A stretch of DNA of 63,015 nt, filler included, from Reclinomonas americana ATCC 50394 (GCA_048213135.1; 10 parts of 10 records of this genome joined end to end with filler, not necessarily neighbours in it), one strand, 5' to 3'; numbered from the whole stretch's first letter, positions 3,706 to 27,093 are shown. Notes: generated by a model not told the origin, from the sequence alone. Made by a program: numbers and translations.

Positions 3706-6700
3706 TTACTTCCTTCGCCGGCTGCGCGAGCCCTTCCTTTCTTGCTGCTGCTGAAGTCGGTGTTGCATATGTTGTAGTTGGCGGTACCGTATTATCTCTC
3801 GGAGAGTTTCCGACACGAGACGATGGTCGTCTCCGAGAGAGCGTCTAACAAGGGGGAGCAGGTCGGAGAGTTCAGTGACAGCAGCACTCGGATCTGCTCC
3901 TAACGCAGCCAGTTGAATCCGGGACGTCAGAGTTTCCTCGTGCAGTGGACCGAAAACCTCAGAGCGCAATCGAATAACACGCTGCACGAGCCGTTTCACA
4001 TCCTTCGGCTGCTTTGATGAAACCCGAAGGCATGCAGCCAGGTTTTCCATCGAGACGAGCGTCGATGGATGCCGTTCACCCAGCACCTCTGTCTGCACTT
4101 CCAGCACACGGTGATGCAGTCGCTCAGCCTCCACGAAATCACCACGCGAACTCAAACACACGGCCAGGTTACCCATCGAGGTGAGCGTAGATGGATGCCG
4201 CTCACCCAACATCTCTGTAAACATCTCCAGCACAAGGCGATGCAGTCGCTCAGCCTCCACGTAATTATCAAGCGACTCCAAACACAAAGCCAGGCTGCTC
4301 ATCGAGGCGAGCGTGTGGTGATTCCGCTCACCCAACACCTCTGTGCGCACTTCCAGCACATGGCGAAGCAGTCGCTCAGCCTCCACGTGATCACCACGCA
4401 ACTTCAAGCACGAGGCCAGGTTACCCATCGAGGTGAGCGTAGATGGATGCCTTTCGCCCAACACCTCTGTAAACACCTCTAGCACACGGCAATGCAGTCG
4501 CTCAGCCCCCACGTGATCGCCACGCGACTCCAAGCACTTAGCCAAGTTGTTCATCGAGGTGAGCGTAGATGGATGCCGCTCACCCAACACCTCTGTCTTC
4601 AGTTCCAGCACACGGTGACACAGTCGCTCAGCCTCCACGTGATCACCACGCGATTGCAAACACCACGCCAGGTTACCCATCGAGGTGAGCGTGTCGGGGT
4701 GTCGTTCACCCAACACCTCTGTCTGCTCCTTCACCACACGGCGATGCAGTCGCTCAGCCTCCACATAATCACCACGCGACTCCAAGCATGAGGCCAGGTT
4801 GTTCACCGAGCCTAGCGTGCCGGAATGCCGTTGACCCAACACCTCTGTACGCACTTCCAGCACGTGGCGATGCAGTCGTTCAGCTTTCACGTGATTACCA
4901 CGCGAATCAAAGCATGAGGCCAGGTTACCCATCGAGGTGAGCGTGTTGGGATGTCGTTCACCCAACACCACTCTTTGCATCTCCAGCAAATGGAGGTACA
5001 GTCGCTCAGCCTCCACGTAATCACCACGCGACTCCAGGCACAAGGCCAGGTTGCTCATCGTGGTGAGCGCGTGAGGATGCCGCTCACCCAACACCTCCGT
5101 CTGCACTTCCAGCACATGGCGATGCAGTCGTTCAGCCTCCGCGTGATCACCACGCGACTGCAAGCACGAGGCCAGGCTGCCCATCGAGGCGAGCGTGTCG
5201 GGATGCGGCTCACCCAACACCTCTGTCCGCACTTTCAGCACACGGCGATACAGTCGCTCAGCTTCCACGTAATCACCACGCGACGTCAAGCACAAGGCCA
5301 GGTTGTTCATCGAGTTGAGCGTGGATGGATGTCGTTCACCCATGAGCTCTGTCTGCACTTCCAGCACATGGCAAAACAGTCGTGCAGCCTCCACGTGATC
5401 ACCACGCGATTGCAAACACCAAGCCAGATTATTCACGGAGGTGAGCGTGGACGGATGCCGCTCACCCAACACCTCCGTCTGCTCCTTTGCCACACAGCGA
5501 TGCAGTCGCTCAGCCTCCACGTGATTACCATGCGACTGCAAGCACAAGGCCAGGTTGTTCGTCGACGTGAGCGTGGACGGATGCCGCTCACCCAAAATCT
5601 CTGTGCGCACCTTCAGCACTTGGCGAAAAAGTCGCACAGCCTCCACGTAATCACCACGCGTCTCCAAGCACGTGGCCAGGTCGTTAATCGAGTTGAGCGT
5701 GGATGGATGTCGATCGCCCAACACCTCAGTCTGCACTTCCAGCACATGGTGAAACAGTCGCGCAGCCTCCACGTGATCGCCACGCGACTGCAAGCACGAG
5801 GCCAGGTCGTACATCGAGGTAAGCGTGGACGGATGCCGTTCACCCATGACCTCTATCTGCACTTCCAGTACACGGTGATGTAGTCGCTCAGCCTCCGCGT
5901 GATCACCACGCGACTGCAAGCACGAGGCGAGGTGGTTCATTGAGGTGAGCGTGGATGGATGCCGCTCACCAAATATTCTTGTCTGTATCTCTTGAACAAC
6001 ACCGTACAGACGCTCTGCTTCAAGCGCACGCCCGCACTCATTAAAGCATCTGGCCTGCAGCGCCACCAAATCAACGATCCGTCCATCAGCTGTGGTGACC
6101 ATGCTTTGAATGATCTCAGCAGCATCAGCGTATCGCCTGCACGCAAACAGTAGGTAAGCCTTGCACGTGCTGCGTGCACGATGTCGTACGCCAGCCTCCG
6201 CATCAGTAACAGACAACGAACTGTCAAGTGCATCAATTGCCTCGGCTGCAGAACGGACGGGAAACTCGGCAGTAGACAGTCGGCCATGTACCAACTCGCA
6301 CATGTTTGCCAAGCCGCCGCTGAACAATCGATGCCGAGCTTCGTAATAAGGGCCAGTCTCTTGCCACGGAAGCGAGCGCACGTAATGTGCAAGATCCAAC
6401 CACAACAGCTGCATCGCCGGCGATAGCGAAACCAACATATCAGTGCTGCAATCTTTGTCGCACTGCTGCAAGACACAGTACATGACATTCATCATGCCTT
6501 GTCGACACACTGCAAAGCCGTTGACATCTCCATCGCGTGATCGACCCTGGCTCAGCCACTCCACCATAAGATCATGCAGGTGGTATTGGCACGGATCACG
6601 GACAGTTGCTGCATCCCGTCGACACAACAGTTGCAGCAATTCGTTGCCAGAACCGTGCATTGTTGCTGTTGCCATGCTTGACGATTTGCACAGAGCATCA

Positions 6701-7794
6701 AGGTCGCTGCGTACACCGTCACGTGATGCGCCCACTGGAATCAACTCCTCCAGCTCACGTCGCATTTCTAGAATGGCTTCAGCTGCAGGCCGCGGAAACC
6801 TGCCATCTGCATCACGCAGTTCTTGACTCTTGTCAGCAGCCTGCGCCAATCGCTCAACAAGCCGAGCCAGGCCTGCCTGACAATCGGCAGTCAGTAGCCG
6901 CCCACCACAGTAGTCAGGCACGTCAAGCATCGCGAGCAACGTGGCGACAAGGCGTGAGGTGGCCGGTATGCGCATCTCTTGCAGCACAGCAACCAACAGC
7001 AACACCTGCCGCATACGGATCGAACAGGCTTCAAAGTTGGAGCGCATCAGAATGTCGAGCGCCGCACAATTCTTCTCTTCCAGCAGTCGGGTGAGATCGT
7101 CGCCCATAAGCGTCTCAACGTGACACCGGATGAGCTCACTGCGCGAGAGCAGTGAGTGTTATGATGATGCACACAGCGAGATTTCTGTCCAACAGCAGTG
7201 TCCATCACACCTCAAGCACAGCGAAGCTCGAAAGGCCTGCGGCTTTTGTGCCAGCATGTGCGCCACATTCTCGCGCACAGCTTTAGGAGCGTACGAAAGT
7301 CGACCATCAACCAACTTGACAATGTCAGCCTCCTCCACATCGCCCACATTCTCGCACACCACGTACGCCGCCGAGAGTGCACGGTGGACATCACCAGCTA
7401 CCGCTGCGTACCGAGAAGTGACGATGATGAAGGGAGCCACCATGCTCGACGGATCTGCAACAACAGAGAGCACAGCAAAAAGCATGAGATGCGAAACTCG
7501 AAGCACGGCAACCGCGTCGCACACACCTCGCCGTTTCCCCCGATCATGTGGCGCCTGAAGCGCCGAACTGATTTGCTCAAAGGAGCCAACATTGTCCAGC
7601 AGCAGAACACCGCGGCTGTCTCGCATCAGATCACTCAGTCGAATTCGCAAACTGTCGACATCTGGTGCACGCCCGTGCGACCACGCGTCAATGTCAGAGC
7701 GAAGCTGCGCAGCGTCGGCAGGGAATGTCGATCGTAGCTCATTCGCAAAGGTACGCAGGCAGTCAGCCAGCATCTCGCTGGCCTTTAAACATGC

Positions 7795-7857
<63 letters not shown>

Positions 7858-9106
7858 ATACACCATCATCATGAGTAGCCGCACAGCGGACAGCGCGCGC
7901 AGCGATCAGCGAGACGCACCGGTGTGTACAACTGAGTGTTTGCGATGTGGCCACGCATGTCCGCATAGAGAGCCGAGCCACGCCACATGCCGGCACGGCC
8001 CATCTCGCTAATAATCAGTTCCGCGAGCATGGTCTTGCCGCTGCCAGCTTCTCCGGTGAGCACCACAATGGCCGGTCGCGAGTCTGCGCACAAAGGACCG
8101 AGAGGATGAGCACAGGAATCAGCGAGTGAGTAAGGAAGGCATACTCACTGGCTTCGGCATTCAACATGCACTCGGCGATGCTGGTGGCTAGGGTATGGCG
8201 ATTGGGGAACACGAACTGAGGGACAGAACCAACAGTTGTGACTTGCACCTTCGGGCCCAAAGGAGCGGCGGCTGCAAAAGAGACGAAAGCAACTGTTGGT
8301 CTCTAACAATGCATGAAACAAGCACGCCGCGTGCTCTCACCTCGCCGGATCTCATCGAGTTGTTCCACAAAGGAATCGGCTTCAGCAGCAGGTAATCCAA
8401 GTTGGCGCAACTTGTTCGCAATTTCGCCTTCAGCGGAGCGATCACCGAGCAAGCGTTCGAGATCAGCACGCTCCAGCTCGGGCTTGTCGTGGCTGAGACG
8501 ATTGCGAAGATCACTGCGGAGCCACTCCACTGCGGCGCGCTACACACAGACAAGCGAGTGTAAGCCTCACTTCAAAGGGGTGCACGTAACAGCGCATTTG
8601 CAGAACACTACACACAAATATGCATGCACACACGCACACACACACCTGCGTGGAATCTTCGAGCATGCGAACCACTCCCATAGCCGGATCCGGAGACTCG
8701 TAGTGTGCGCCCAGAGCCAAAGACGACAACACGGTCGTGTCAAACGAATCACACAGAGGCTCCACGACACCGGCCAGCAGCTCATTGTGCCAGGCGTCGA
8801 AAGCAGCGTGGTGATGATCGCCACGAATCAACACGTAGAACTCGCCTGCGACATGACAGCTACAAACACGATGTGGGTTGAGTCGACAACACATATATGC
8901 ACAATAAACGATGCGCACGGGGAGTGGCAAGCAGACGCACCGTGGATCGCGCTTCTTGTCGATTTTCTTCCATTCCTGCATCAGGTGGAGACCAGTGTCG
9001 CGGTGGCACTGGCGAACGAACGGCGGCAGCAGTCGTCGCACCAAAGCGCGCAGAGCACCAGTGGCCACAACACGCTGCGCTTTGGTGACGCGCCAGAAGT
9101 TGGACC
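3706..9106 (-). CDS. NLR-like STAND protein: HEPN - NB-ARC-type ATPase - kinesin-light-chain-type TPR array (multi-exon, 5' start uncertain near the gap)
   Basis: Spliced N-terminus contains FDTTVLSSL...LRNRLSH (RxxxxH at 8489-8506). Walker A GEAGSGKT at about 8031-8054, Walker B VLLLDNV, sensor-1 IIVTSR. ORF 3706-7107 carries about 15 near-identical 42-aa TPR units (HPSTLTSMNNLASCLQSRGDHVEAERL...). Confidence 0.85.
4070..5965 (-). repeat. Coding tandem repeat, 126-bp unit x ~15 (TPR array)
   Basis: Unit visible at DNA level (e.g. cagtcgctcagcctccacgtgatcaccacgcgact recurring every 126 bp). Confidence 0.95.
7796..7850. repeat. (CA)n microsatellite in an intron
   Basis: Perfect dinucleotide run. 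Confidence 0.95.
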
Positions 9107-9245
9107 TGCGCGAGAAAGCGAGGAAGAGAGAGAGAGAGGCAGATTCAAGTGAACCAGTGGTTCGTGCGTGTGCGCGTGGAGAGAGAAAGTGGGACGAGAG
9201 TACGAGGTAAACCGTTGCGCACGTGGCTGTTTGCATGAAACGTCG

Positions 9246-9246
<1 letters not shown>

Positions 9247-9290
<44 letters not shown>
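9247..9290. repeat. (GA)n microsatellite
   Basis: Perfect dinucleotide run near the contig end. Confidence 0.95.
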
Positions 9291-9293
<3 letters not shown>

Positions 9294-9403
9294 ACAGAGA
9301 GAGACGACGACGTACGTAGTGTAGTACTATTACTAGTACGACGAACGACGTAACGGTTCGTTCCGTCGTACGTACTAATAGTGTGTGTCGTGTCGTACGT
9401 AGT

Positions 9404-9503
9404 NNNNNNNNNNNNNNNNNNNNNNNNNNNNNNNNNNNNNNNNNNNNTTAATTAATTAANNNNNNNNNNNNNNNNNNNNNNNNNNNNNNNNNNNNNNNNN
9501 NNN
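9404..9503. other. Artificial scaffold-gap spacer N44-TTAATTAATTAA-N44 (also at 11324-11423, 13358-13457, 21195-21294, 33078-33177, 37490-37589, 47253-47352, 48377-48476, 60189-60288)
   Basis: Identical 100-bp structure nine times; the 12-mer places stop codons in all six frames. Confidence 0.98.
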
Positions 9504-9582
9504 TTTCCCTCCCGTCACCCTTCCCCTTCTCCCCCTTCCCTCACTCTTCCCCTTTCCCTCACTCCCTCGTCCACTCTCCCAG

Positions 9583-10885
9583 ACGCGCTGCTGTCCACCT
9601 CTTGTCTGGACGCGACCCCGAGATCCGCATACAAGCCATTGAGACCTACCTCGCCCACCTCAACGCCCTCGTTTCGTCCTTTCCCCCTTTGTCTCACACT
9701 TGCCTCCCCTCTGACACACACGAGCCACACACAAAAAGACCACATACATTGATCTGAAGGAGACCGCGAATGATCCGGTGCGCGTGACCCGCCAGTGCGC
9801 GCTCACCTGGTCCTCCATGGTGCTTCCGGAGACCAAGAAGAGCCTCTTTCGCGACGCAGAGACTGTCAAGTACACAGTCACCTCGCTGCGCTTCGATCAG
9901 GTCATGATGCTCTTCTGTCTCGGACTGGCGCTCATTGCGCAGGCCGAGGGTCTCATTGAGGCGACCACCGACAAGGACTCGTTTGCGGCGGCAGTGAAGC
10001 CGGCGTGCCAGCACCTGCAGCGGTGAGTTTTTAGGCACGCGCGATCAGACAGGAGAGTAAGTCGCTCATGTGGGGTTGCAGTGCGGCTGGCGTGTTTGAG
10101 TTTCTGGCGGATAGGGAATTGCCGCGGTATTATCTGACACCGCAGCGATCGGCTGGCGAGCTCAATCAACACGCCGCCAATGCGATGAAGATGTTGCGTC
10201 CTCTGTTGGTGATGTGGATGTGTGGTGCGTTGGTGTTGATGGCGATGATGCAGTGCGGCGCTCGGGCAGGCGCAGGAGTTGGTGTGCCGTCGTGGTGCGT
10301 TCAAAGAAGAGTGCTTCTTTCCTCCCTTCGTCACTCGACTCACTCGTTGCTCTGTGTGGCACAGCCGAACTGCAAGGGTCATCGCCTGGAATCATCGGTC
10401 GCCTGGCCTTCCCACTCCTCCAGCTGTACACAGAGTTGAGTCTCAATCTCTTTCTCTCCTCCCTTGTGGGCTTCAAACTGACTCCTCCTTCCTCTTACAG
10501 CCTCTCGGAGTACATTTCACGCATCGAGGCTGACGAAGGCCGTCACGTCACGCTGTACTTGGTGGTCAAGGCACGCAATGGCCTCAATTATCATGGCGTG
10601 CTCACCTTCAAGTGCCTCGGCTTGATGCACTACGAGAAGGAGTTGCGACGGTCGCAGTGTTGAATAAGTCACATCACGCCTCGACTGACACCCGCTCGCA
10701 GAGAGGTGGGAGTGGCCATCTCCATGCTGCAGGGCGCCGAGTACCACAACACCGAATGCCACTTCCCCCCATTCCCCAACGATTCGAACTTGGAGGCGAA
10801 TCTGGAGCGACAAATGGTCGAAATCCGTGCGCTGCACCAAAAGTTGCGTGGAATTGTGAAGAAACGACTGCCCCGCTGTCGCGTG
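9583..10885 (+). CDS. BRO1-domain (BROX/ALIX-like) protein, partial, multi-exon
   Basis: Spliced translation shows BRO1 hallmarks: TWSSMV...SLRFDQVMMLFCLG, ACQHLQRAAGVFEFL, AALGQAQELV, VGVAISMLQGA. Both ends are close to gaps. Confidence 0.7.
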
Positions 10886-11226
10886 TGGATCCGTTCACAG
10901 GCTTCTTGCCCCTCTCTTGCGTGATCCTTTTCTCTCTTGTTGCTCCTCTTCTGATCGCGTCGCTCTCGTTTCATTCGTTCTCATGTCGCTGTCTTTCGCC
11001 TGCGTTTCCCCTCTCAGTCTCTCCGTTCCGTTGTCTGCCTGTCATCGCTTCGTTCGTTCATTGGCCCGCCTCCATGCTTCATCTCCTTACTTGCCGCACT
11101 TGTCCTCGTTCGCGTCGCTCTGGTATCGCCCTTTCGCTTGCAGTAGCTGCCTCGTTCAACCCTTCTCTTATCGCCCACCTCATGCCTGTATCGATCCCCG
11201 CCGTTGTCTCTCCTTGTTGAATCACT

Positions 11227-11231
<5 letters not shown>

Positions 11232-11323
<92 letters not shown>
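11232..11323. repeat. (CT)n microsatellite abutting a gap
   Basis: Perfect dinucleotide run. Confidence 0.95.
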
Positions 11324-11423
11324 NNNNNNNNNNNNNNNNNNNNNNNNNNNNNNNNNNNNNNNNNNNNTTAATTAATTAANNNNNNNNNNNNNNNNNNNNN
11401 NNNNNNNNNNNNNNNNNNNNNNN

Positions 11424-12108
11424 CATCACCGCCTGGGTCATCTACTGGTACTTTATCAACTCGTTCCGCGCACTGGCCAGCTGGGATCCGATCGAGTACG
11501 CCCTCATGCTGCTCATTCCGGCCATGTTCCACTGGTTGTACTTGTCGTTCAAGCAGGCGGTGTACTTGTGGCGAGCACGTGGACGCATGCTGCAACTGGC
11601 GTCGCAGTTGAATGGCGGAGGAGTGGAGCAGACGGCGTTCGATGCGGAGCTGTATGAGTGGGCGGTTGGAGGCAATCCGCTGTGGCTCGAGTCGGTGGTG
11701 CTGCGGGCGACCAACCCCGCGACTGAGATCGTCGATCAGCTGCAGCGCATCCATCAGGCGGCGGAGAAGGCGGCGTCGGCCAGCTACGCCGAGTGGTTGC
11801 AGGTGGAGGCCACGCGGTTTGCGTGGCTGTCGGGCATCGAGTGGCTGATGCTGCTGCTGAATGTGCTGGCCACGTACGGCTACGCCCTCGAGCCGCTCAT
11901 GTTCCTGCTGCCCGACAGCGCCGCCGGTGGCTCGCCGGCGTGGCTGCACACCGCCAAGTTTGGCTACACCGACAACGATGCGCTCTTTTACGGCAATGTC
12001 ATCGGCGACATTTGCTGGACGCTGGAGCCCGTCATCATCCTGGCCACGCCGACGCTGATGCACAGCGTGATCGAGAGCAAGGCGGCGACACTGAAGAAGA
12101 CGCAGTGA
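11424..12108 (+). CDS. Multi-pass membrane protein of unknown function, 3' part (5' lost in gap)
   Basis: Open frame with strong GC3 bias from the gap to the TGA at 12108; four hydrophobic segments (ITAWVIYWYF, ALMLLIPAMFHWLYL, WLMLLLNVLATYGY, WTLEPVIILAT). Confidence 0.65.
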
Positions 12109-12225
12109 TGCGGAGAGGCACTCAGCGATGGCGTTGTAAACAAGAAGGAAGCTGGTACATGCATTTTTTCTCTCTCTTTTTCTCTCTGCACAAGTCTGCA
12201 TACACACACATACACACACGATCAA

Positions 12226-15200
12226 TCACGTCTCGGGTAACGGGGCGCGGCAGGTGGGGCATTCCATTCTGTCAGGGAGCAAGGGTGAGAAGGTGAGGGG
12301 AAAGAATGAAACAGAACTTGAAGAGTCGCAACTTCATGGCCATCCACCGTTCCAGACACTCGGTGTGGAACACATGATTGCACGGGGTGATCATCACACG
12401 TCGATCACGCATGGACTCCCGCCGCTTCCGCTTGATGGCATCGCTCACTCCCGGTTCTGTAGGCGGATGGGATATGAGAGGAAAATCGAGCAACCCTGTA
12501 TCACAAAGTGGTGCCACACCTCTTGCTCTCCTATCCTCGGCGTTCATCGACAGCAGCGGCACTGCATCCTCGCCTCTACCCGATTCGAGGTCGCGGAACT
12601 CACGTGCCTCGTCCTCATCGTCATCCTCGTCCTCACGCTCGTCGGCTGCCGATCGGTTGATCGACACAGCGGCGGGGCGCAGGGCCGATGATGCAGCCAC
12701 GGCAGCCTGCGCAGCGGCTCGAGCGTTCTGCGGCGAGTCTCCCGCCGCACCCTCCACATCGTCGACCGTGTGCATGCAAATGACACAGTCAGGCGCCTCG
12801 TGGTCCTCCTCGATCCATGCACCGAGCCTGAAAAAGTCGTACTTGGCCGGCAGCCACTGCGTGGGATGAGGGGTTGTCGTCGTGAGTGTTGATGAGCGGC
12901 AAAGTGCGCCTACATCGTGAAAACGCACCGATCGTGGAATGAGGAAGCGCGGACCGAGCCAGTGCTGCACGAGAAGCAGCGCCATCTGGCCGAGCACCAC
13001 CATGATGATGACAATGACCAGCCACGGATCCGGGCGGATGCGGAAGAAGTTGTCGGGGCAGGCGAAGAAGTCTGCGGGAGGACGTGAACTCCACAGCAAC
13101 AGCACGAGGAGCAGATGAAGAGGTGAGAAACGCAACAGGCCGGTACCACCAGACGCGTAAGGCTCATCACGATAATGTATTGCCTGTGCGCAGGGTCAGC
13201 TCGGTGCGCAGCACATCACCGCGTCGAGTAAAAATGCAACGCAACGGATGCAGTGCACGCTGTGCATCACGCCACACATTGCGCACGATTTGTGGAAGCC
13301 AGAAGCAGTACAAGGCGACAAAGAATATCCACACGGACGAGCCCAGGTTGTACGCCGNNNNNNNNNNNNNNNNNNNNNNNNNNNNNNNNNNNNNNNNNNN
13401 NTTAATTAATTAANNNNNNNNNNNNNNNNNNNNNNNNNNNNNNNNNNNNNNNNNNNNCCTCAATTGTATCCCTTCCTGCTTTCCCACTTCCCCCTATTTC
13501 CCAACTTCCTGCTTCTTCTCTCGTCCAACTCATTCCCCTCCCTGTCTTTCTCTCTCCTTTCCTCTTCCTCAATTGTCTCCCTTCCTGCTTTCCCACTTTT
13601 CCCTGCTTCCCTACTTTCTTGCTTCTTCTCTCGTCTTCATCACTCTTTTCCTCTTCCTCTCTTCCTTCTTCACCTTTCTCCCCTTTCCCTTCCTCAATTG
13701 TCTCCCTTCCTGCTTTACATTCTTGCTTCTTCTCTCGTCCAACTCATTCCCCTTCCAATCCTTGTCACCCCGTTTCTCTCTTTTCTTCCCTTTCCTTTCC
13801 TCTCTTTTCTCCCTCTCTCTCTCTCCCCGCTCTCTGTTCGCCTCTCTTTCCTCCACTTTTCCTCCTTGTTTCCACAACCTCTCTGTTCCCCCTCTCTATT
13901 CCTCTTGTCCTCCCCCTTCCTCCAACGCAACAAAAGCGAGCATACAGCATGGTGACTTGCGAGCGTGCATCGTCGTCGGCATCCGGTGGCCGTTGCGCCT
14001 TCCACACCGACAGCAAGTACCGCATCTCGAAAATGGCAAACAAAACAAACTTGAAAAACGCGGCCGTGGCGAAGGCGTTGAACACGGGCTCTGAGGAGGG
14101 GGAAAGAGGGTGTGAGCTGGTTAAACAACCTCTTGATGATTATCAAGCACGTCCGCACCAAAGAGTATGCCCGTGGTCAGGTTGAAGAGGCACAAGTACG
14201 CATCGAGAACCGACTGCAGGCCAAGTGTAAAGACCGACACACGAACAGCCCCCTGTGCATCGTAGACGAGGTCAATATCGCTCGACAAATCAAGGCTGCC
14301 TTCCCAAGTCGTGCGCAACAGATTGCGAGCGAGTATAGTCCATCTGGCGAATGGTGGCCAGCACCTGGACGCATGTCAACTGCGAAAGAGGGAGTGAGAC
14401 TCGGCCGCCCATGATACAGAGGAAGATCGATCGAACGCACCACCACCAGCATCAGCGTGTAGCGCGCTGTCTTGCGCGTGATCTCCGACAACTCGAGCGA
14501 CGACATGGACAGCGTGATGTTGTAGCCACACTGCGCCGAGATGGCGGTGCCCTCCAGAGTCAGGCGGTAGCCGTTGCGACCGAGCGAGGGCTGATTGCTC
14601 GTCGTGGCGGTGCCGGACGAGGTGCCTCCCGTCGATTCGTTCTCGGCGTCCGAGAGGGAGGAGTCTGAGCAAGGGGACAGTGAGCAAGGAGGGGAAATAA
14701 CATTAAAGGGTGGAGATCGGAGAGATGAAACAACAAGAGACTAAATAGAAGAAGCAGAGAAGACGAGGGCTGCAGGTGACGGCGAGGAGTGGAGAAAAGA
14801 TAGATGAAACAGCAAGAGATTAAACATAAACAGAGCACGAAGAAGGCGGCAGGAGTGAAGGAAGACAAGAAAGAAACTTAAGGCGAGGAGTGGAGAAAGG
14901 ATAGATGAAAGAGAAAGAGACTACATAGAAGAAGCAGAGAAGACGACGGCTGCAGGTGAAAGAAGGAAAAGAAGAGACTGTAGACGAGGAGTGGAGAAAG
15001 CATAGATGAAAGAGAAAGAGATTAATAGCAGAAACGGAGCACGAAGAAGGCAGAAGAAGTGAGGGATAGCAAGAAAGAGCCTGAAGGTGTGGAAATGGGC
15101 AGCAAAGGTAAGGGAACATAAGGTGCAATGGAAGTGTTGCAGACAAGAATCGGGCAGCGAGGGAGACTTGGACAGCGGAGTACGAAACGCTAAGGGAAGA

Positions 15201-16483: not shown

Positions 16484-17083
16484 TGGGCGTCGGTGTGATA
16501 ATGAGCGCGACATCTCGCGCGCACGTGTGTGTGTGACTCCTTTGTCGCGCGCACTAACACAGAGAGGAGAGGAGGCAGCGGGTGCCTGCTGATGTCGCGA
16601 TGCCTGTGCGCGCATGTGTGTGAATGTGAGTCAGCGAGTGTGAGATTGAATGAGTGAATCGCAGTGACCATGAACGACGTGTGCACGAGTGTGTGTCTGT
16701 GTCAAGCAAGAGGCAGTGGCGAGTGTGCGAGTGCGAGTGTGAGAGAGCGAGAGAGTGCACGTGTGTGTCTGTGAGGCAATGAGTTAAAAGTGAACACGCA
16801 CACACACAAGTCAGCGTTGACTGCGTGCGCGTGCGTGTGCGCGTGTGTGTGCATCAGTGAGAGCGCGCGCACAGACACAGCAGCCACAAGCGAGCGAGAC
16901 AGAGAGACAGAGAGAGAAAGACAACACAAGTCAAAAAGTGCTCACACGCACCGTTACTCACAAAACGACGCACTTGCTCCCCAGCACGCACTCAGACACA
17001 CAGTGCGCACGTGCGTGTCACACACACACACTAACAACACACAAACGAAACGGCCGCCAATTCGCCTTTCACTTGTCACAACA

Positions 17084-20000
17084 ATGGACGCCGTCTTTCC
17101 TCCACTTCTCTTCGCGCTCGGCCTCTTCCTCGCGCTCTGGTACGCCTTTACGATGACCAGCGCACGGATGACTGCAGTCAAGCGACAATGCCCTCCACGC
17201 ACTTTAGAAGCAGAGTTAGTTGTGCCTTTGCAGGTGCGTCTGTGGGGTGCATCGACGGCGGCGTATCAAGTGGAAGGCGGTGTGGTGAACAATCAGTGGT
17301 GCAAGTGGGAGGATGCGGATCATTGTAGTAGCAGTGATGAGGATGAGGTGGTGGTGGTGGCGGAGGCCGAGAGGCATGTGAAGACGGGGGAGCGGTGTGG
17401 TGTGGCGTGTGATCATTGGAATCGGTGAGTGTGGCGTGGGGGTGGGAGGGGAGGGGTAGAGGGGGAAGAGGGGGATGGGGGAAGGGAGGAGGTGCATGCA
17501 TTTCGTGGAGAGCAGATTGCACAGGAAGCTTGGAGGCTCTTGCAGTTTGCAGTCTATCTGTGTGAGAGTCCTTGCAGCTCACCTTCGATGCAGTAAGTGG
17601 GATAGGTTGGTTGTTGCAGTTCGTGGACAGCTTAATACAAGCCTTTGGGAGAGGGCGGCAGCTGAGAGGTTCTTGCGGTTTGCTATAGAGTCTTGCAGCT
17701 CTCCTTGGATGCAGTGAGTTATGGGCATGCAATCTTTTGAGACTGGGTAACGGCTGGGAGGCGCATGCAGTTTGCAGTCGTTCTGCGTGAGAGAGTCCTT
17801 GCAGCTCCTCTTGTATGTAGTTAGTGGAGTGGGAGAGTTCATGCATTTCGTTGTATTGAGAATGCAAGCCTTTGAGGTGCATGCAGTTTGCAGTCGTTCT
17901 GCGTGAGAGAGTCCTTGCAGCTCCCCTTGTATGCAGTAAGTGGGGATAGGCTGGTTGTTGCAGTTCGTGGACAGCTGAATGCAAGCCTTTGAGAGAGGGT
18001 TTGCTAGCTCACCTTGGATGCATTTCATTGTATTGAGAATGCAAGCCCTTGACTGCTGGGAGGTTCTTGCGGTTTGCTGGCGTACTACGTGAGAGTCCTT
18101 GCAGCTCACTTTCGATACAGTGACGGCAGACAAGTTCATGCATTTCGTTGGGTTGAGAATGCAAGCCTTTGAGAGGGGGTGACAGCTGGGAGGTTTTTGC
18201 AGTTTGCTGTCGATCTGCGTGAAAGAGACCTTGGAGCTCCCCTTGCATGTAGTTAGTAGAGTGAGAGAGTCCTTGCATCTCCCTTCGATGCAGTGAGAGT
18301 GGCGACAGGCGGGTTGTTCACTCATGTGGGTTGCGGAGAGCCAGAGAGAGTGGAGATGCTGCTGCAGGAATAATGCATCAATAGAAGGGTGCTTCCTGCA
18401 GCGCATTTGTATTATGTTAATCTATCCCTTTATCCACCTTCGTTGACTCACTTCCCCTTCCCCCCTCGCGCAGTTTCGACGAAGATCTCGAGCGCATGAA
18501 GGAACTCGGTCTCAACTCGTACCGCTTCTCCCTCGAGTGGTTTGTCACTCCATCCGCCTGCCTGCCTCTCCGTCGCTCATCCCACCTTCCAGGAGTCGCA
18601 TCGAGCCCGAGAAAGGCGTGTTCGACGAGGCGGCAATTGGACGGTACCGCTCGTGGTGCATCAAGCTGCGCGAGGCCGGCATCGAGCCGATTGTCACTCT
18701 CCACCATTTCACCGACCCGCTCTGGTTGCGCAAGTCGGCGTTCCCCGAGGAAAGCGACGCGCTGCTCGACAACACCGATCGCCCGGGTTTCGAGTGGGAG
18801 GACAGCGTGTTCCACTTTACCGACTTTTGCACGTTTGTGGTGCGCCGTCTCGGTGATGTCGTCGACTACTGGATCACCATCAACGAGCCGTACGTGTATG
18901 CGGTGAACGGGTGGCTCAAGGCCGGTGAGTCGCGCGTATGCGGGAGGGGTGGAGTGCGCGACGCAAAGATGCTTACTTGCCAATGTGCAGAATTCCCGCC
19001 GGGCGTGCGCGATGCAAAGCGCATGCTGCAGGTCATTCGCAACCTGCTGCTCGCCCACGCTGCGGCCTACAATGTCATTCACGACAATTGCAAGCGACCC
19101 GAGTGTCGCGTCAGCTTTGCCCACAATGTTGCGTTGAGGGAGATGACGGTCCTTGTTTCTCCCTTGTTGCTAAACGGTGGAGCGCAGGTTTCTGTGTTTG
19201 AAGCGAAACGGTGGTGGCATGTTGGCGATGTGGCGGTGGCGGGAGCGGTGAGTGAGTGTGTGAAGTATGTGAGTGAGAGGATTAACTCACCGTCATGTGC
19301 TTGGTCACGCAGCTGAGCGAGTTCAGCAACGACTCGGCGATCAAGGTGCGGTGCATCGCCGCCACTCTTCTACTTTCCCTCCCTCGCGCTCACTCTGCTC
19401 TCATGTGCTCAGGCGGCGATGACTGGATTTATGCAACTTGGACCCGGCCCGGGTCTTCCCAAGCTGATCGAGTATCACGAAGTGCTGCGGGGCACACTGT
19501 GCGTCACCCCTTCTCCCCTCTTCTCACTCGCTCAAGGGAGCTGCTGCTGACTTCCTTTCCCTCGCCCCCGGAAGTGACTTTATTGCCGTCAATCACTACA
19601 ATCGACTGGTGGCCAGTTGCGTGCATGGTCATCTTCTTCCTCGTCACGTCGTGGCATCTCACCACCCGTGCAGGCTTCTCGCTCGTGCAGTGGCCTCCGA
19701 TCGACATTTCTTTCGACCCGAAATGCGAAAAGAATGACATGGGATGGGATCTGACTCCGCTCTCCATGTACGAGGCCCTGATGAAGCTCAAACCGTACGG
19801 ACTGGATGGTTTGTCGCTCGATCGTTGCGCCATATGCCACGTACGTTCCCTCACTCTTTACCTGTGTACAGTAATGATCACGGAAAGCGGCACGTGCGAC
19901 GGCGAAGTGCCGGACAGAAGGCGACAGGTGTGCCCCGAATCAAAGAAGCGCCGCCAAATACGAGCAGCACTCCTCACGCTTCCTGCACAGAAACACCTCG

Positions 20001-20485
20001 CCGACACCATGTATGCCATCGACTGTGCCGTCAAGCAGGGCGTGAAGGTGAGACGTGCTCAACATGCGTTGCTCTTTTCTTTCGTCTCAATCTCGTGTGC
20101 CTGCTCCTTCAAATCATAGGTCATCGGCTATCATTACTGGTGAGCTGCCTGCTTGTTGTTTGTTGCTTGGCAGTGCATGACACTGACACTGACACCCGTG
20201 CCACAGGTCGCTGATGGACAACTTTGGTGCGGCATTATCTCTCCCCGCAATCGCTCCCTCGCCTTGTTGCTGACACGTCCCTGCGCAGAGTGGGCTCACG
20301 GATTCCAGCCTCGCTTTGGCTTGTATCGCATGAATTACGCCACGCAGGAGCGCACACTCACGGGCGGCGGCTCATTGTATCGCGACATTATCCAAGCGCA
20401 CCAAGAACGCGGCGGCGAACGGGCTGCCGTGCGACGCGCCAAACCCACGCCACCACCGAGGCCGGCGCACCTCAAGGCTCCGTAG
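17084..20485 (+). CDS. Glycoside hydrolase family 1 (beta-glucosidase-like) with N-terminal membrane anchor, multi-exon
   Basis: [57 protein letters not shown], acid/base TINEP, DFIAVNHY, nucleophile ITESG, YWSLMDNFEWAHGFQPRFGLY. Includes two 20-nt micro-exons near 20120 and 20207. Confidence 0.93.
17490..18410. repeat. Mosaic degenerate repeat in the ~1-kb first intron of the GH1 gene
   Basis: Modules gagagtccttgcagctc(a/c)cctt, tgcatttcgttgtattgagaatgcaagcctttgag, gggaggttcttgcggtttgct and gggataggNtggttgttgcagttcgtggacagct recur in shuffled order. Confidence 0.8.
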
Positions 20486-20548
20486 GCGAACACATAATCT
20501 TTAGATTGCGAGGGGACAGGAAAAAAAAGGGTGGTAAACTACACAAGT

Positions 20549-21048
20549 TCACAATCGATACACGGGCTCGCTCAGAATTCTCTCCACCGGCGACAGAGCG
20601 AGCGGCAACTCCACCTCCATGGTGACCTCCCACGCCTCATTGAAATCCGCCGCCACCTGCCTCTCATTTGCTTGCCGACACACCTCCACGCTCTGCAGGA
20701 ACACCTCGCATGTGTCCTCCCGTGAGCACAACACGCGGCCGTCGGCCGACAGCAACTGCATCGCCATGTCTACATGCAAAAAAGACGGTGAGTGCAAGGG
20801 CGGCACTCATCTCGACAGGAGATGCAAGTACCGTGCGGTCCTCCGCGGAATTCACGGTACGGCACCGCCGTCCATCGCTCAGCCAGGTCCATTTCCCGCG
20901 TGAGTGAGAGGCCCTCGGTGAGGTACCTGGCCGGTGCGCGCCGTTCGACCACGAGTGGCGCCGCGGCCGCACTCATCTCGTCCACCAACTCGATGAGGAA
21001 TTCGAGTGGTCGGCGGGTGGGGTCCAGGCAGCGGAAGCGGAAGACCTG
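20549..21048 (-). CDS. Hypothetical protein, last two exons (5' part lost in gap)
   Basis: Coding-like exons VFRFRCLDPTRRPLEFLIELVDEM...GTCISCRD and DMAMQLLSADGRVLCSREDTCEVF...PVYRL* separated by a GT-AG intron. Confidence 0.55.
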
Positions 21049-21294
21049 GATGAAAGGGGGGGAAGGGGAGAGGGAAAAGGGGAAGGGGAACTGAGGGGGG
21101 ATGTAGGAGGAATAGGAAAAGAAGAGGAAGAGTGGAGGAGGAGGAGGGAGGAGAAGAAGAAGAAGAAAAACAAGAACAAGAAGAAGAAGAAGAANNNNNN
21201 NNNNNNNNNNNNNNNNNNNNNNNNNNNNNNNNNNNNNNTTAATTAATTAANNNNNNNNNNNNNNNNNNNNNNNNNNNNNNNNNNNNNNNNNNNN

Positions 21295-21371
<77 letters not shown>

Positions 21372-21527
21372 GAGGAGGAGAAGAAGAACAAGAAGAAGAA
21401 GAAGAAGAAGAAGAAGAAGAAGAAGAACAAGAAGAACAAGGAGAAGCAGAAGAAGAAGAAGAAGAACAAGAACAAGGAGAACAAGGAGAACAAGAAGAAC
21501 AAGAAGAACAAGAAGGAGGAGGAGGAG
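21295..21527. repeat. (GA)n and (GAA/GAAC/GAG)n purine microsatellite
   Basis: Low-complexity purine run directly after the gap. Confidence 0.9.
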
Positions 21528-21611
21528 GGCACGAGTGTCAGTGATGTGGGTGTTTGCACAATGCAGAAAGTGCACTTTCCCTATCGGAAGTTAGATTTCG
21601 GCGTGCACGAA

Positions 21612-22396
21612 CCAGGCTTTGGGTTGAGGATCTCAAAGATGCCGTGGCACGCCGTCGCTCCAATGTGTCTGTCGGTGGCGAGTTCACAACACAGCCTCGA
21701 AACGCCTAGCGCACACATTCATGCGTACCCCAGGACAGCCAAGGCGGCGACCAGCGGCACACCCGGAATGCGCGGCACCTTGTTCAGGCGCGACGTGCTG
21801 GTGTTGATTACCGCGTACGTCTGGAAGCCCATCATTCCAGACACCTACAACACACTATTCGTGAGGAACGAGATAGGATGGGGAGAGGAGAGGGGAGAGC
21901 GGAGGGAGCTCAACAGCATCGCCCGGCGCAAAGCCGGGATGCTTGCTCTCCTCGACGATTCCTACACCGCTGCCGTCCATCACCGTGCCCAGCTGCAGCG
22001 ACAGAAACACACATGTAAGGAGAGGGAATGGAGAAAGGAGAGAAGGAGGGCGAGGGGAGAGAATGCACACCGGAATGCTGGGGCGATAGGAGGGTTTCTC
22101 CGAAGTCCCTGTGAGCATTGCATCAGTGCGTGTGCGTGTGCTTGTCTCCGCTGCATTTGTGAACGCAACAGATACGCATGGCAGGGTCCAGGCTGAGGTA
22201 GAGCACGCGCACCAGCGCCTCATTCTCCTTTAGCTCGGGCACCGGCACCTGCGAGAATCAGCAGTCAGCACTTGTCTCACTCACTCTTCTCTCGTCTCAC
22301 GCGGCGCACATCCTCGTGCTGAAAGTCGTCCTCGTGGAAGTTGCCCTCGGGGCGCCGCACGAGCAGAACGCGGTGATTGATGCGCTCAGATGCCAT
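21612..22396 (-). CDS. NADP-dependent alkenal/prostaglandin reductase-like MDR oxidoreductase (PTGR/CurA family), 5' half; remainder lost in gap
   Basis: MASERINHRVLLVRRPEG...VPELKENEALVRVLYLSLDPAMR...GVGIVEESKHPGFAPGDAVSGMMGFQTYAV...GATACHGIFEILNPKPG. Confidence 0.85.
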
Positions 22397-22674
22397 TGCG
22401 AGAACACGCAGTTGAACTTACGTGTGCATAGCAGGACTTGCACTGGACTTTTTTCCGACGTCGATCTGCAAGTCACAGCTGTGTTTATCGAGACTGACAC
22501 GCGCGCCCCCGCCGGGTCACTGGTGTTGGAGATGCACATACCCAACAAGCACACACAAACACACTGCGCATCTCACGCTCATGTTCTTTCCACCGTGCCC
22601 CATCCCCTCTTCCCTCCTTGTCCTACCCTCCGCACATACGTAATTCATTATTCTCATCTCCACCACTCTCGACC

Positions 22675-25600
22675 TTACAGCACCACACACCGTGTGTCTG
22701 CCTGTCGAGCCGCCGACTCGTCCAGAGCACCTACTCCGAGAGCCACCACGGCACCGACGATACGCTCGACGAGACCCGTGTGCCGATTCATGACAAACAG
22801 GAGTCGGTCACGCGACAATCCCACCACCCGGTCACTTCCCACAGAAACGGATTGAACAATCAGACTGTCGGCCGGATGCGGTGGCAGCAGGTCACCCGTG
22901 GCCAGCAACCATCGACGTATACTGCCGCTATCATCGCGACTGACGACATGCTGCGCCTCATCCACAACCTCGGTCGACAGAGACGTTATGAAAGATGTGT
23001 GGCACTGGAGCACAAACTGTTCACGCTCGTCGCCGTTCGCAAGCAGCACGCGTACCGACTTGTCAATCGCACACAATAGCGTGTTGTTATCCGGCGTCAG
23101 CATCACCACACCACAGTGCATACCGGGCACTTGCAGCCGTCGAACTTCTTTACCAGTGGCAATCATCCACATCTGCACGAGTACGGCACTGTTGATGAGT
23201 GCCGAATCGGTGCTGAGCGCCATTACATATTGACCGTCGGCGCTGATAGCCACAGTCGACATCTTGGCGGTTGGAAAGCTCCGCACTTGTTCACCAGTCG
23301 GTAGAGACCACACGCGTACGGTCTGGTCGGTGCTGCCGGTGACGACGTAACGACCATGGCTGGTACACGCAAGTGCGGACACGCCGGATGTGTGACCCGA
23401 TAGGACGCACACCTCCCGTTCTGCGTTGGGAACCAGTGACCACACTCGCAAGTCATGATCGTCACCACCGCTCACGGCATAGTCGCAGTCATTGTACCGA
23501 GCAACTACCGTCGCCGAGATGCGCTGCGAGTGCCCGTTGAACCGGCAAATTATCTCCCCAGTGTCGGCGGACCACACCCGCACAGAACAGTCCCAGCATC
23601 CGGTGACAACACGTGAACCATCGGCAGTAATGGCGACACAAGTCACACGCGTACCGCGCTCGTCAGCTTGCACAATGGCGTTGTCTTCGGACCAAACGCG
23701 CACTGTTTTGTCGGCACTTGCACTAATCACGTGCGAATCCGGTAACATGACCACTGACGTGACCGCTGCATTGTGGCCCTCAAATCGACGCACTTCTTCG
23801 CCAGTGAGAAGGGACCACGCGCGAATGGTGTAGTCTGCACTTGAACTCACTACAAACTGTCCGTCGCAGCTGACAGAAACGGCAAGGATCTCGCCTTCGT
23901 GCCCGGCCAGACGCGTTTCTTCTTGCCCACTTTCCAGTGACCACACTCGTATCGTCTTGTCCATACTCCCGGTCACCACATGCTTACCGTCTGGGGTGAC
24001 AGCCACACTGCGCAACCACGAGGTGTGGCCTTCCATCCGTCGCACTTCTTCCCCACCGGCCAATGACCACACTCGTAACGTGTCGTCAATGCCCCCACTC
24101 ACTACGAACTTACCGTCGGGAGTGACAGCCACACATCGCACAGCCTCAGTGTGCCCTTCAAACCGTCGCACTTCTTCTCCATTCGCCAGTGACCATACTC
24201 GCACAGTCTTGTCGTGGCTACCACTCACGATGAACTGCCCGTCGGGAGTGACAGCAACACATTCCACCCAACTCAAGTGTCCTTCAAAGCGTCGCACCTC
24301 CCGGCCGTCTAACAGTGACCACACTCGCACTGTGTGGTCCTCACTCCCGCTCACAGCAAACTGACCGTCGGGAGTGACTGCAACGCACCACACGCCCTCA
24401 GTGTGCCCGGTCATTCGTCGCACTTGTTCATTACTCAGCAGCGACCATACGCGCACCGTCTTATCACTACTCCCGCTTACTACGTGCCGCCCGTCTGGAG
24501 TGATGGCGACGGAATTAACTTCTTGCTCGTGACCCTCCATCGGCTTCCTCGGCCACTTTACACCCGTCACATCCGCCTCTCTGAAATCTGCCTCTCTCGC
24601 ATACGCCATGCACAGATTCACCCCTCGCAAATCCGCCCCCCTCCACACCGTCCTGTGCATCACCGCATCCCTCAAATCTGCACCCCTCACTCGTACACCC
24701 GACAGATCTCGCCCACTGAACGCCACTTGAGCCCCACACAACACTGTCAAAGCATTCGCCGCTGCCGTCACCACTCGCTCCTCATCCACCTCGCGTGACA
24801 ACCCAATCACCTCCCACAGCCTCGCTTGCAACGTGGGAGACCGTCGCACCACCTCCGCCATTTGCTCCACCAACGATGGTCGATCATTCAGCAGTCGAGC
24901 TGACAGCAGATGCTGTTGCACATCTTGCATCGTCAACCTCCTCTCCTCATGCCATGTCTCCCACGCAAACAAATGTCGCGCCACACAGTGCTCGAGCAGA
25001 GACAGGTGCACGAATCCCCACTGCTCAGTACCGAACCGTCGCACAATGGGACAGCACACTCGCACGTGCTGGTTTCTGTGGCCGAGAAACTTGTCAAATG
25101 GTCCTTCGCTTCTGCTTGGAGCTTCTGGTGCACCACCAAAATCATCACAGTCTTCCTCAAATGCTCTCTCTTCAGACATCGCGCGGACCACATTCCTCTC
25201 GTGCATCAACCGTGCCAGACCCTCACAGAACTCCAGACACGTCTCCTCCCGCGGCACACGCTCCGCACCGAGAAGTGTCTGTCTCTCCTGCTCCCTCACA
25301 ATCCACTGTCGAATGAATCGGTCAAACACATCGCACCGTGTCGGTCGCTGCACGCCACTCGCCACCAACTGCGGCAACACACGAGCGACCACTGCCAGCA
25401 TGAACGGATTCGACACCAGTGCATCCAGTCCCTGCACGCTCTTCAGTGCACGAAGGTACTCCTCGGCAGTTGACCATCTCTCTTCACCGTCATCACCGTC
25501 ATCATCACCATCACCCACTTGCACATGCCGCTCAAAGTACTCCACAATCTGTTCTCTGCTGAACGGCGCAATATGTCGCTCCGTCAGCTGCTGCACGCAC

Positions 25601-26884
25601 AGCTGTCCTCGTGCATCCACTGGTGCAAAATACCGTCGATACTGCGTCACCCCACCCAGTGCCGTCAGTGCGTAATCGCCACGACAGGTGATAATCACCT
25701 TCACATCGCGACACACATCCAACTGATTCTTGACAAACAGATTCACACCACGATACAACTCGTCGTACCCGTCAAGCAGCAGCAGCAGTGGTTCATCCTT
25801 TAACCGTCGCACATCCGACTCGAATCCCAACTCGGGTGACAATCTCTCCAACGCCTCCTCCAACAGCCGCTCGTCGGCATTTCGCAGTGCACCAAGAGGC
25901 ACACGCACAGGCACTCGTCTACTCTCTCGCGTCTGCCACTGTCGCCATGCTCTCTCGGCCAGCACCGACATGGTGGTGGTCTTGCCAGCTCCACTGTTGC
26001 CAAAGAGCACAAGCACACGCTGCGTGGTGTTGGTGTCGGAGAGGAAGGCATCCACCTCCGTCAACAGATCCGTCATCTTGTCTCGCGACGAGACGTCGCG
26101 CTCATGTGAGCACAGCAGTGGCACATACATCAGTATATCCTTGTGAACACTCTCGTCAAGTTCGTAGAAATCGAGCTCGCGTTTAGAGAGTCGACGAATT
26201 CGCTCCCCAAAAGTGCTGATACGCACATCCAGGATGCGCGCCTCACGAAGGCGGGCACAGTACATACGCTGCTCCTCAGCAGTCAAGGCAAGACCACCGA
26301 CGATGGCCAGAAATTCACCGCCTTCGCCAACAGCTTCAGCGACTTCGCTGGACGTCCAGCAGCGTCCGTGCACCAGCTCGTTGCGCAAAGATCGCAGTCG
26401 CGAGATGGAGTTACGTTCCGTCTTGTCACATATGAGCATCGATTTGTCAAGGCCGCCATACAGCAGGATGGAGGTGAGTGCCGTGGCGTCCAGCCCATCA
26501 CAAGATGGGTCTACCGGCGGATTGGCCTCCAACGCGGCGCGCCAGGCCAGAACGCGCGGATGCTTCTCGTCAAACAGCTTGACTCGAATGGGATAGAGTG
26601 GCGCATGACGACAACGCCATGCTTGCACTTGACTTGCATCCATATGAGACGGTGTGAAACTCGGCACCCACGCTCGCACGTCGAAGTCGGGATGCTTGCG
26701 ACTGAATTGCGCTAGCACTCGCCGACAGCGAAGACGCACGGCGTCTTCGACGATTTCGGCGCACACAGTCATGCGCTGGTTATTGACCAACCTATGCAGT
26801 GGGTTCCTGTTAGTGCTCCATATTTGAGGGACAATATCCAATTGCCACACACGCAACCGTTGTTCGTTCAGTGTGAGTTCAATG
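22675..26884 (-). CDS. NLR-like STAND protein, main exon: HEPN - NACHT - pentapeptide repeat - ~14 WD40
   Basis: LDATALTSIL...LRNELVH (RxxxxH at 26368-26385). Walker A GNSGAGKT, Walker B LLLLLDGYDE, VIITCR, NPFML. Pentapeptide run RDLSGVRVRGADLRDA...ADLRGVNL. WD40 units GH...VAVTPDG...SGS.D.TVRVWSL. Splice acceptor at 26885-26886. Confidence 0.92.
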
Positions 26885-27056
26885 CTGGGCGAAAATCATA
26901 GAAACAGAGGTGAGATGATGAAGAAGCAACAGCAAATGATGAGAGAGAAGGTGCACGTGGAGAGAGTAAGAGCAAGCGAGGGAGAGAGAGCACTGGCGAG
27001 GGAGGGAGAGATAGAGAGTAAGATAGACAGACAGCCATACATACAAGCAACCAGAC

Positions 27057-27093
<37 letters not shown>

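Follow-up and report, generated by a model that had tools for sequence, protein, structure and literature searches.

Two predicted STAND receptor genes of Reclinomonas americana with a homologous, HEPN-like N-terminal domain

We analyzed a 63,015-nt stretch of DNA from Reclinomonas americana ATCC 50394 (GCA_048213135.1), called the window below, and focused on two minus-strand genes in it: gene 1, which encodes a NACHT-WD40 protein, and gene 2, whose predicted product carries a TPR array. The explanation that we favor, with moderate confidence, is that both are STAND receptor genes of one eukaryotic genome, resembling NOD-like receptors (NLRs), in which a homologous head of ~180 aa, a divergent HEPN domain, stands on otherwise unrelated bodies. 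As part of this explanation, the body of gene 1 consists of NACHT, pentapeptide repeats and WD40, encoded in one exon, and that of gene 2 of a probably NB-ARC-like P-loop NTPase and 16 TPR units, its coding sequence being split among eight or nine exons.

A homologous head on two different bodies

The two N-terminal domains are homologous by direct sequence comparison. When the spliced exons 3 and 4 of gene 2 were aligned with residues 67-179 of gene 1, the Smith-Waterman score was 96, and none of 1000 shuffles reached it (30.4 +/- 4.9, maximum 55). With the full-length proteins, blastp aligned residues 12-181 of one with residues 32-179 of the other at 29% identity over 172 columns (E 6e-6). 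A sequence-only reading of the same DNA had proposed that the heads align over more than 100 aa, and these results bear this out; as that reading also stated, both heads keep an R-N-x3-H motif (RNELVH in gene 1, RNRLSH in gene 2) and a D-x-T-x-L stretch. No other segment of the two full proteins gave a blastp match better than E 1.8. Since a single segment was significant, the two proteins have ~180 N-terminal residues in common and little else, in agreement with the idea of the same head on different bodies. The proposed three-part layout of effector, STAND NTPase and repeats was likewise found in both genes, in one frame in gene 1 and in the predicted spliced model in gene 2.

Gene 1 lies in an open frame that spans 22675-26895, with the first Met at 26772 and the stop at 22675-22677, and its domain order is the shared N-terminal domain, NACHT, pentapeptide repeats and a WD40 array (Table 1). 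The NACHT domain passes the Pfam threshold (PF05729, 37.6 bits against a cut-off of 26.7, E 2.6e-9), and the translation holds Walker A GNSGAGKT and Walker B LLLLDGYDE. In hhalign comparisons, the NTPase matched an alignment of 12 cyanobacterial NACHT domains with a probability of 98 across 258 columns, and one of NB-ARC domains (28 loci) with 93.6. In the WD40 coding DNA, a tandem period of 126 nt was detected at 23919-24408. Of 124 pattern-matched bacterial stretches, 87 were confirmed by tblastn as relatives, the best segments among the matches listed being 33-46% identical. A genome-contig search with the NACHT region gave 99 pattern matches, none of which was confirmed as a relative.

Gene 2 is interrupted. 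Its terminal frame (3706-7158, 1150 codons) carries TPR_12/TPR_10 repeats, and the coding sequence upstream is broken across several frames; in the predicted model, introns split the head, as had been suggested. All peptides quoted in the sequence-only reading are present in minus-strand frames. The splice that it drew between EDSTQ and RAAVEW uses a GT..AG intron in phase 0 (8645-8540, 106 nt, GTGTGT...GTGTAG) after an exon ending at 8646; its downstream border had to be moved by one position, the next exon beginning at 8539 and not at 8540. The predicted spliced model, read from the DNA, consists of eight exons (exons 2 to 9 in Table 1) and seven introns of 65-137 nt, all GT..AG, and gives an unbroken frame of 1588 codons. 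Among sequencing runs, one metatranscriptome contained 5% of the words sampled, which is not counted as support for the splices. Adding a candidate exon 1 extended the alignment with gene 1 back to residue 3 of the latter and raised the score to 115; the contig ends at 9403. The post-NTPase region (residues 1-400) found no homologous protein, fungal or other, in a library search. We also noticed two microsatellites here, (AC)34 at 7796-7863 within intron 5 and (GA)29 at 9248-9304 just upstream of the candidate start.

For the NTPase of gene 2, Pfam was run exon by exon, and the spliced NTPase was compared by hhalign and hidden Markov models (HMMs) with alignments of cyanobacterial domains. The NB-ARC alignment comprised 28 of 30 loci (L133 and L139, whose matches cover only ~107 profile positions, were dropped) and the NACHT alignment all 12 of 12. 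The P-loop exon scored 22.9 bits for NACHT and 14.6 bits for NB-ARC (cut-off 23.5), both below threshold, and no single exon received an NB-ARC call from Pfam, which counts against that class. With hhalign, the spliced NTPase matched NB-ARC with a probability of 95.4 over 138 columns, including GxGKT, LLLDNV and IIVTSR, versus 80.6 over 28 P-loop columns for NACHT. The local HMMs agreed weakly (8.7 bits for NB-ARC versus -1.5 bits for NACHT). The NB-ARC assignment made in the sequence-only reading is supported to the extent that hhalign prefers this class over NACHT, without a Pfam call behind it. We conclude from these profile comparisons that the NTPase of gene 2 is probably NB-ARC-like, and that the NTPases of the two genes likely belong to different STAND classes.

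The TPR array is highly regular. Tandem Repeats Finder reported a period of 126 in its DNA, with 15.3 copies, 79% matches and 0 indels, and per-position entropy showed that variation among the units is concentrated at positions 2, 14-16, 20-21, 31, 34, 37-38 and 41. This pattern suggests recent duplication of units or concerted evolution, with diversifying surface positions. Judged by their sequences, the NACHT, WD40, pentapeptide and TPR domains are firmly identified.

Relationship of the head to HEPN domains

We searched Pfam with residues 1-229 of gene 1 at E <= 10, and a single family was returned, HEPN_Swt1 (PF18731; E 0.053, 14.3 bits, residues 116-158 on profile positions 72-114 of 115). 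An alignment-free feature search of the ESM Atlas with residues 55-185 placed at the top a cluster with a score of 0.91 in which 20% of the members are HEPN_Swt1, and 11 of the 30 hits belong to the set of this cluster. Two further clusters, in which HEPN_DZIP3 is carried by 11% and 38% of the members, scored 0.89 and 0.87, respectively.

Profile comparison pointed to the same family. In hhalign, a profile of the two head copies matched 30 cyanobacterial Swt1-like HEPN domains with a score of 35.0 (P 2.3e-5, probability 76%, 44 columns), compared with 16.0 for NB-ARC and 12.9 for NACHT as negative controls and 11.8 for the reversed profile; none of 60 column shuffles exceeded 17.95. A second run, with the head alignment A1 against an alignment (A2) of 26 Swt1 loci, gave a probability of 65% and P 6.1e-5. 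Each head alone matched in the same register (P 3.9e-4, and P 0.011 with exon 4 of gene 2 alone). Alignments A2 and A3 hold 26 of the 30 fetched Swt1 loci, L088 being left out for its ambiguous strand at a contig end and L087, L102 and L105 as near-duplicates. In the MAFFT alignment, the W, D, R and H of both heads fall on W26, D51, R86 and H91 of the bacterial family. Among the 26 bacterial domains, the last three of these columns do not vary, and W26 and N87 hardly do. RNELVH and RNRLSH both conform to an Rx4-6H motif with a polar residue after R.

We then considered the predicted structure. In HEPN domains, the Rx4-6H motif and an acidic residue of helix 2 have been placed at defined points (PMC3710099), and the low-confidence models suggest the same points here. 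In a single-sequence AlphaFold2 model (predicted local distance difference test, pLDDT, 36.9), DSSP assigned a helix at 120-134 that includes R130, with H135 just after it, a next helix at 141-158, and D95 before a helix at 96-105. R130 thus ends a predicted helix, H135 starts a loop and D95 heads the preceding helix, which fits the HEPN placement at low confidence. A model from a multiple sequence alignment (MSA) reached pLDDT 65.8 with the same layout (motif at the end of helix 68-85); this MSA includes bacterial HEPN rows and is not independent. Searches of the MSA model with Foldseek, which the sequence-only reading had proposed as a check, and with VIA-align wide returned generic helical bundles and no specific fold. 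A homodimer prediction with two copies of the core domain scored 0.01, and with the partner's own fold uncertain, this score weighs neither way on binding.

The head appears to be isolated. Within the window, neither tblastn nor a pair HMM run over six frames found a third copy. No relatives were obtained in a library protein homology search with residues 1-229 of gene 1, nor in one with alignment A1 at E <= 10, and comparison of the head with the PDB by sequence or profile returned nothing relevant. A search of metagenome contigs gave 66 pattern matches, of which 0 were confirmed. An exhaustive phmmer search of 1.84 billion representative proteins with the gene 1 head gave one match, P0006 (935 aa), which we judged a false positive: it is a translated tandem repeat whose 15 matched stretches inflate the score.

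Several results weigh against a HEPN identity. The HEPN_Swt1 match of 14.3 bits lies below the gathering cut-off of 27.5, so that the head does not qualify for this Pfam family. HEPN_DZIP3 (PF18738) was not matched in Pfam at E <= 10, and single exons of gene 2 gave no Pfam match to HEPN_Swt1. PADLOC and NCBIfam did not match the head either. Exon 4 of gene 2 alone retrieved no HEPN cluster from the ESM Atlas, only short uninformative bacterial clusters with recognition below the mark. Significant profile similarity extends over no more than 41-44 columns at the motif. Taken by itself, the N-terminal half of the head scored 9.2, versus 9.3 +/- 1.7 in 98 shuffles, although the best local match in this half places D-x-T-x-L on DvsaLL in the same diagonal as the motif match. 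Using an HMM of the cyanobacterial Swt1 domains, HMMER gave gene 1 9.0 bits, barely over the best of 4000 shuffles (7.6), and gene 2 a domain score of 3.2 bits, inside the shuffle range. In the reverse HMMER search of five cyanobacterial genomes that hold the family, one match fell inside the HEPN domain (E 0.49), one on an unrelated CmlA_N/NAD_binding_4 enzyme (E 0.21), and three genomes gave nothing. Finally, conservation of the R and H is judged on two copies only.

Balancing both sides, we consider HEPN ancestry of the head likely. Its most likely affiliation is with the Swt1-like (bacterial Ava_2192-type) branch of HEPN domains, as a very divergent form in which R-N-x3-H would close the third core helix and a conserved Asp would lie in the helix before it. 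The head probably descends from this branch and works like it without being a member by Pfam's rule. Of the DZIP3/Swt1 type named in the sequence-only reading, the Swt1 side holds as the best and only family signal, below the cut-off, and the DZIP3 side found no Pfam match.

Three other explanations were weighed. The head could be a lineage-specific helical adaptor or oligomerisation domain without HEPN ancestry, with a role like that of death-fold, HeLo or Goodbye-like heads and a coincidental R-N-x3-H. We think this rather unlikely. It would account for a domain that reaches no curated family threshold, resembles HEPN within ~44 columns only, yields nothing beyond generic helical bundles in fold searches and has no relative among 1.84 billion representative proteins, the sole match being a spurious tandem-repeat open reading frame. 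However, HEPN_Swt1 is the sole Pfam family reported, and the alignment-free language-model search independently puts it on top; the hhalign score is far beyond the shuffles and negative controls; and R, N and H, as well as the D and W upstream of them, coincide with the best-conserved bacterial columns at near-equal spacing. Less probable again is a head with a HEPN fold and no catalysis, acting as an RNA-binding, sensing or regulatory module and signaling through partners. Both heads keep the R, the polar N, the H and the helix-2 Asp, whereas the inactive versions described, which Anantharaman et al. inferred in eukaryotic Swt1 and other families and which provide the precedent for this explanation, have lost the motif (PMC3710099).

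The pairing itself could also be artefactual: a mixed or binned assembly might have brought together contigs of different organisms, or one of the genes might be a decaying pseudogene, and there would then be no single system. Artificial spacers do link the contigs of the window into a chain, as this explanation would have it, but the composition of the two contigs is compatible with a single genome (tetranucleotide r 0.92, GC content at third codon positions 0.61 versus 0.62, codon-usage r 0.79), both frames are intact (1365 and 1588 codons), and the head has no other relative anywhere searched. We regard such an artefact as highly improbable.

For a divergent HEPN head on two STAND bodies, we favor the usual NLR logic, extrapolated from established knowledge of NLRs and HEPN RNases (PMC3710099). 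The repeats would keep the protein off until a ligand binds; a ligand at the repeats would trigger nucleotide-dependent oligomerisation of the STAND module, and this would bring the heads close together. Clustered HEPN domains would pair to form a composite active site and cleave RNA, and the cell might then stop growing, die or destroy foreign RNA. It is by analogy that we infer that the heads cut RNA and dimerise, that ligands are sensed and that the proteins serve immunity or allorecognition, and the oligomerisation-driven RNase activation and the "cassette swapping" of the sequence-only reading would likewise be analogies. Since both STAND classes would bear the same effector, the link between NLR oligomerisation and RNase could, if the head is active, be tested by comparing the two genes.

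A broader proposal is more doubtful, and we put it forward as a tentative possibility: that the head represents an unrecognised HEPN subfamily, derived from the Swt1-like (Ava_2192) type of bacteria and too divergent for Pfam cut-offs or for phmmer over 1.84 billion proteins, which a eukaryote outside the animals recruited as the common RNase "executioner" of two or more STAND classes (NACHT-WD40 and NB-ARC-like-TPR). If this were true, HEPN-NLR immunity or allorecognition would have been invented independently of the animal DZIP3-HEPN NLRs, and RNA-cleaving NLRs would be a recurrent solution across eukaryotes.

Contig layout, neighboring genes and feature coordinates

The window contains nine identical 100-nt spacers of the form N44-TTAATTAATTAA-N44 and is made up of ten contigs chained end to end; looking for the spacer sequence in the literature revealed no source. 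Gene 2 lies on the piece 1-9403 and gene 1 on the piece 21295-33077, with four spacers (from 9404, 11324, 13358 and 21195) between them. Therefore, the distance of about 17 kb noted in the sequence-only reading is an artefact of concatenation or assembly that says nothing about physical linkage, and neighborhood arguments across spacers are void. Two practical lessons are more certain than the HEPN reading: open-reading-frame tracks miss effector domains that introns split, and chains of contigs joined by spacers can mimic gene neighborhoods. Further (GA)n, (TC)n and CT-rich repeats occur near contig ends, and repeats at contig ends may be the cause of the assembly breaks there.

The only other recognisable gene on the contig of gene 1 is an Armadillo/HEAT-repeat gene upstream of it (30150-32656, minus strand), which runs over several frames (introns) and whose PDB matches are designed ARM proteins and importin-alpha only. 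On a separate small contig, an open reading frame at 12272-13195 (minus strand) encodes a DUF2921 transmembrane-E3-ligase domain (37 bits, over the cut-off of 27.5) and a C-terminal RING finger. Another, at 58061-59317 (plus strand), encodes an ecdysteroid-kinase-like (EcKL/APH) phosphotransferase domain (E 1e-13). Scans for Rfam families and for tRNAs returned no match.

Table 1. Features of the two genes and the window, with two cyanobacterial proteins used for comparison
Feature	Position	Strand	Basis
Gene 1, coding sequence without introns, 1365 aa	22675..26772	-	Open frame, translation; Pfam
Gene 1, HEPN-like, all-helical head shared with gene 2, residues 3-179	26236..26766	-	Alignment with spliced gene 2; Pfam, hhalign, ESM Atlas
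Gene 1, RNELVH (R130...H135), candidate Rx4H catalytic motif	26368..26385	-	Sequence; aligned bacterial Swt1-like HEPN
Gene 1, NACHT NTPase core, Walker A GNSGAGKT	25525..26019	-	Pfam PF05729; hhalign
Gene 1, pentapeptide repeats between NACHT and WD40	24559..24702	-	Pfam PF00805, E 6.7e-8, 32.4 bits against cut-off 20.2
Gene 1, WD40 beta-propeller array, with at least 10 repeats found by Pfam and degenerate ones after them	22678..24540	-	Pfam WD40, E 1.2e-102, 10 stretches
Gene 2, candidate exon 1, MQTATCAT, inferred	9213..9236	-	Sequence and alignment extension; followed by 138-nt GT..AG intron 9212-9075
Gene 2, exon 2, first part of N-terminal domain	8941..9074	-	GT..AG borders, unbroken frame
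Gene 2, exon 3, ...HHAAFDAWHNELLAG...CDSFDTTVLSSLALG...EDSTQ	8646..8859	-	Sequence, gene model
Gene 2, exon 4, RAAVEWLRSDLRNRLSH..., second half of HEPN-like domain	8341..8539	-	Sequence, gene model
Gene 2, RNRLSH motif	8489-8506	-	Within exon 4
Gene 2, exon 5, linker ahead of P-loop, ...VPQFVFPNRHTLATSIAECMLNAEA	8149..8271	-	Gene model; aligned where NB-ARC proteins have the lead-in "F.GR..EL"
Gene 2, exon 6, Walker A GEAGSGKT	7920..8083	-	Generic P-loop Pfam matches
Gene 2, exon 7, Walker B VLLLDNV	7527..7782	-	Gene model; hhalign to NB-ARC
Gene 2, exon 8, IIVTSR, sensor-1-like "TTR" position of NB-ARC	7211..7454	-	hhalign on VLiTTR of cyanobacterial NB-ARC
Gene 2, exon 9, with the helical region after the NTPase, the TPR array and the C-terminal tail	3706..7138	-	Stop 3706-3708
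Gene 2, TPR array, 16 units of exactly 42 aa, no indels	4030..6045	-	Pfam TPR_12 E 2.5e-190, TPR_10 E 1.2e-141
Contig-joining spacers	9404-9503, 11324-11423, 13358-13457, 21195-21294, 33078-33177, 37490-37589, 47253-47352, 48377-48476, 60189-60288	.	Sequence N44-TTAATTAATTAA-N44
Cyanobacterial protein, N-terminal HEPN_Swt1 + DUF499 ATPase, 1137 aa	L152:4682-8092	+	
Cyanobacterial protein, AAA_35 + HEPN_Swt1 + dynamin-like GTPase, 1300 aa	L154:2282-6181	-	

Comparison with known systems

Fusions of HEPN and STAND modules in bacteria and animals were described in 2013, the bacterial ones with an N-terminal HEPN (PMC3710099). In the same source, the HEPN of DZIP3 is fused to TPR, NACHT and LRR and is expanded in Nematostella, oyster and Capsaspora. 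More than 50 DZIP3-like HEPN-NACHT genes, some with TPR or WD40, were counted in a pearl oyster (PMC9646362), and 17-83 per species in anthozoans (PMC8260672); corals pair NACHT with LRR/WD40 and NB-ARC with TPR (PMC10236652). These expanded and variable families of cnidarians and bivalves have been read as innate-immune receptors (PMC9646362, PMC8260672, PMC10236652). The DZIP3/hRUL138-like HEPN-NACHT proteins (PF18738 + PF05729) described there have in common with the two genes here an N-terminal HEPN, an Rx4H motif with N after R, and a central STAND NTPase (PMC9646362, PMC8260672, PMC10236652), as well as C-terminal LRR, WD40 or TPR repeats. Unlike them, the heads here have no PF18738 match: only language-model features point to HEPN_DZIP3, and the alignable signal is Swt1-like. 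The setting also differs, with a genome of 57% G+C, introns of 65-138 nt and a head without a detectable relative in large libraries.

The bacterial Swt1-like HEPN domain gives the best profile-profile match, with the W, D and R-N-x3-H columns in common, and it too sits on large NTPase proteins of conflict-system type. The family was present in 34 of the 301 cyanobacterial-phylum genomes searched. The bacterial member Ava_2192 is described as fused to a DUF499 ATPase and as transferred to few eukaryotes, where the members (Naegleria, dictyostelids, Daphnia) are stand-alone domains (PMC3710099), and the two fetched bacterial proteins in Table 1 fit this description. A second AAA_35 gene (L154:6189-7538, minus strand) adjoins the 1300-aa one. 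In contrast to the genes here, the bacterial domain is joined to NTPases of the DUF499 or AAA+ types instead of NACHT or NB-ARC, and WD40 and TPR arrays are absent; identity to the heads is 12-24% (MAFFT).

Fungal NLRs (NACHT-WD40, e.g. HET-E/NWD, and NB-ARC-TPR) show the same pairing of NACHT with WD40 and of NB-ARC with TPR. Their repeats are said, by Dyrka et al. in 2014, to be equal in length and highly conserved, with few hypervariable positions. The TPR array here resembles this pattern, with 16 x 42 aa, no indels and variation at few positions. Neither for the head nor for the post-NTPase region did our searches find a relative, fungal or other, and "HEPN" occurs 0 times in the full texts of two surveys of fungal NLR effectors (PMC9815663, PMC4986451).

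Bacterial bNACHT/STAND defense proteins also carry HEPN effectors (bioRxiv 10.1101/2022.07.19.500537; PMC3710099), HEPN being listed among the RNase effectors of bacterial NACHT proteins (bioRxiv 10.1101/2022.07.19.500537). Those genes are prokaryotic, whereas gene 2 has, as predicted, eight or nine exons with introns of spliceosomal type, and no PADLOC model of bacterial defense systems matches the head. In the part of the literature that was searched, we met no report of HEPN-NB-ARC, HEPN-NACHT or HEPN-NLR genes from organisms other than animals and bacteria.

This architecture belongs to a known kind, and we read it as a divergent variant of the HEPN-STAND receptors already described. What appears to distinguish it at the sequence level is a Swt1-like rather than a DZIP3 alignment, with both Pfam thresholds failed, and the use of two STAND classes in an intron-bearing genome. 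If the head is an active HEPN RNase, the two genes would join the HEPN-NLR receptors already known from cnidarians, bivalves and bacteria, and they come from a lineage whose proteins the large public libraries lack.

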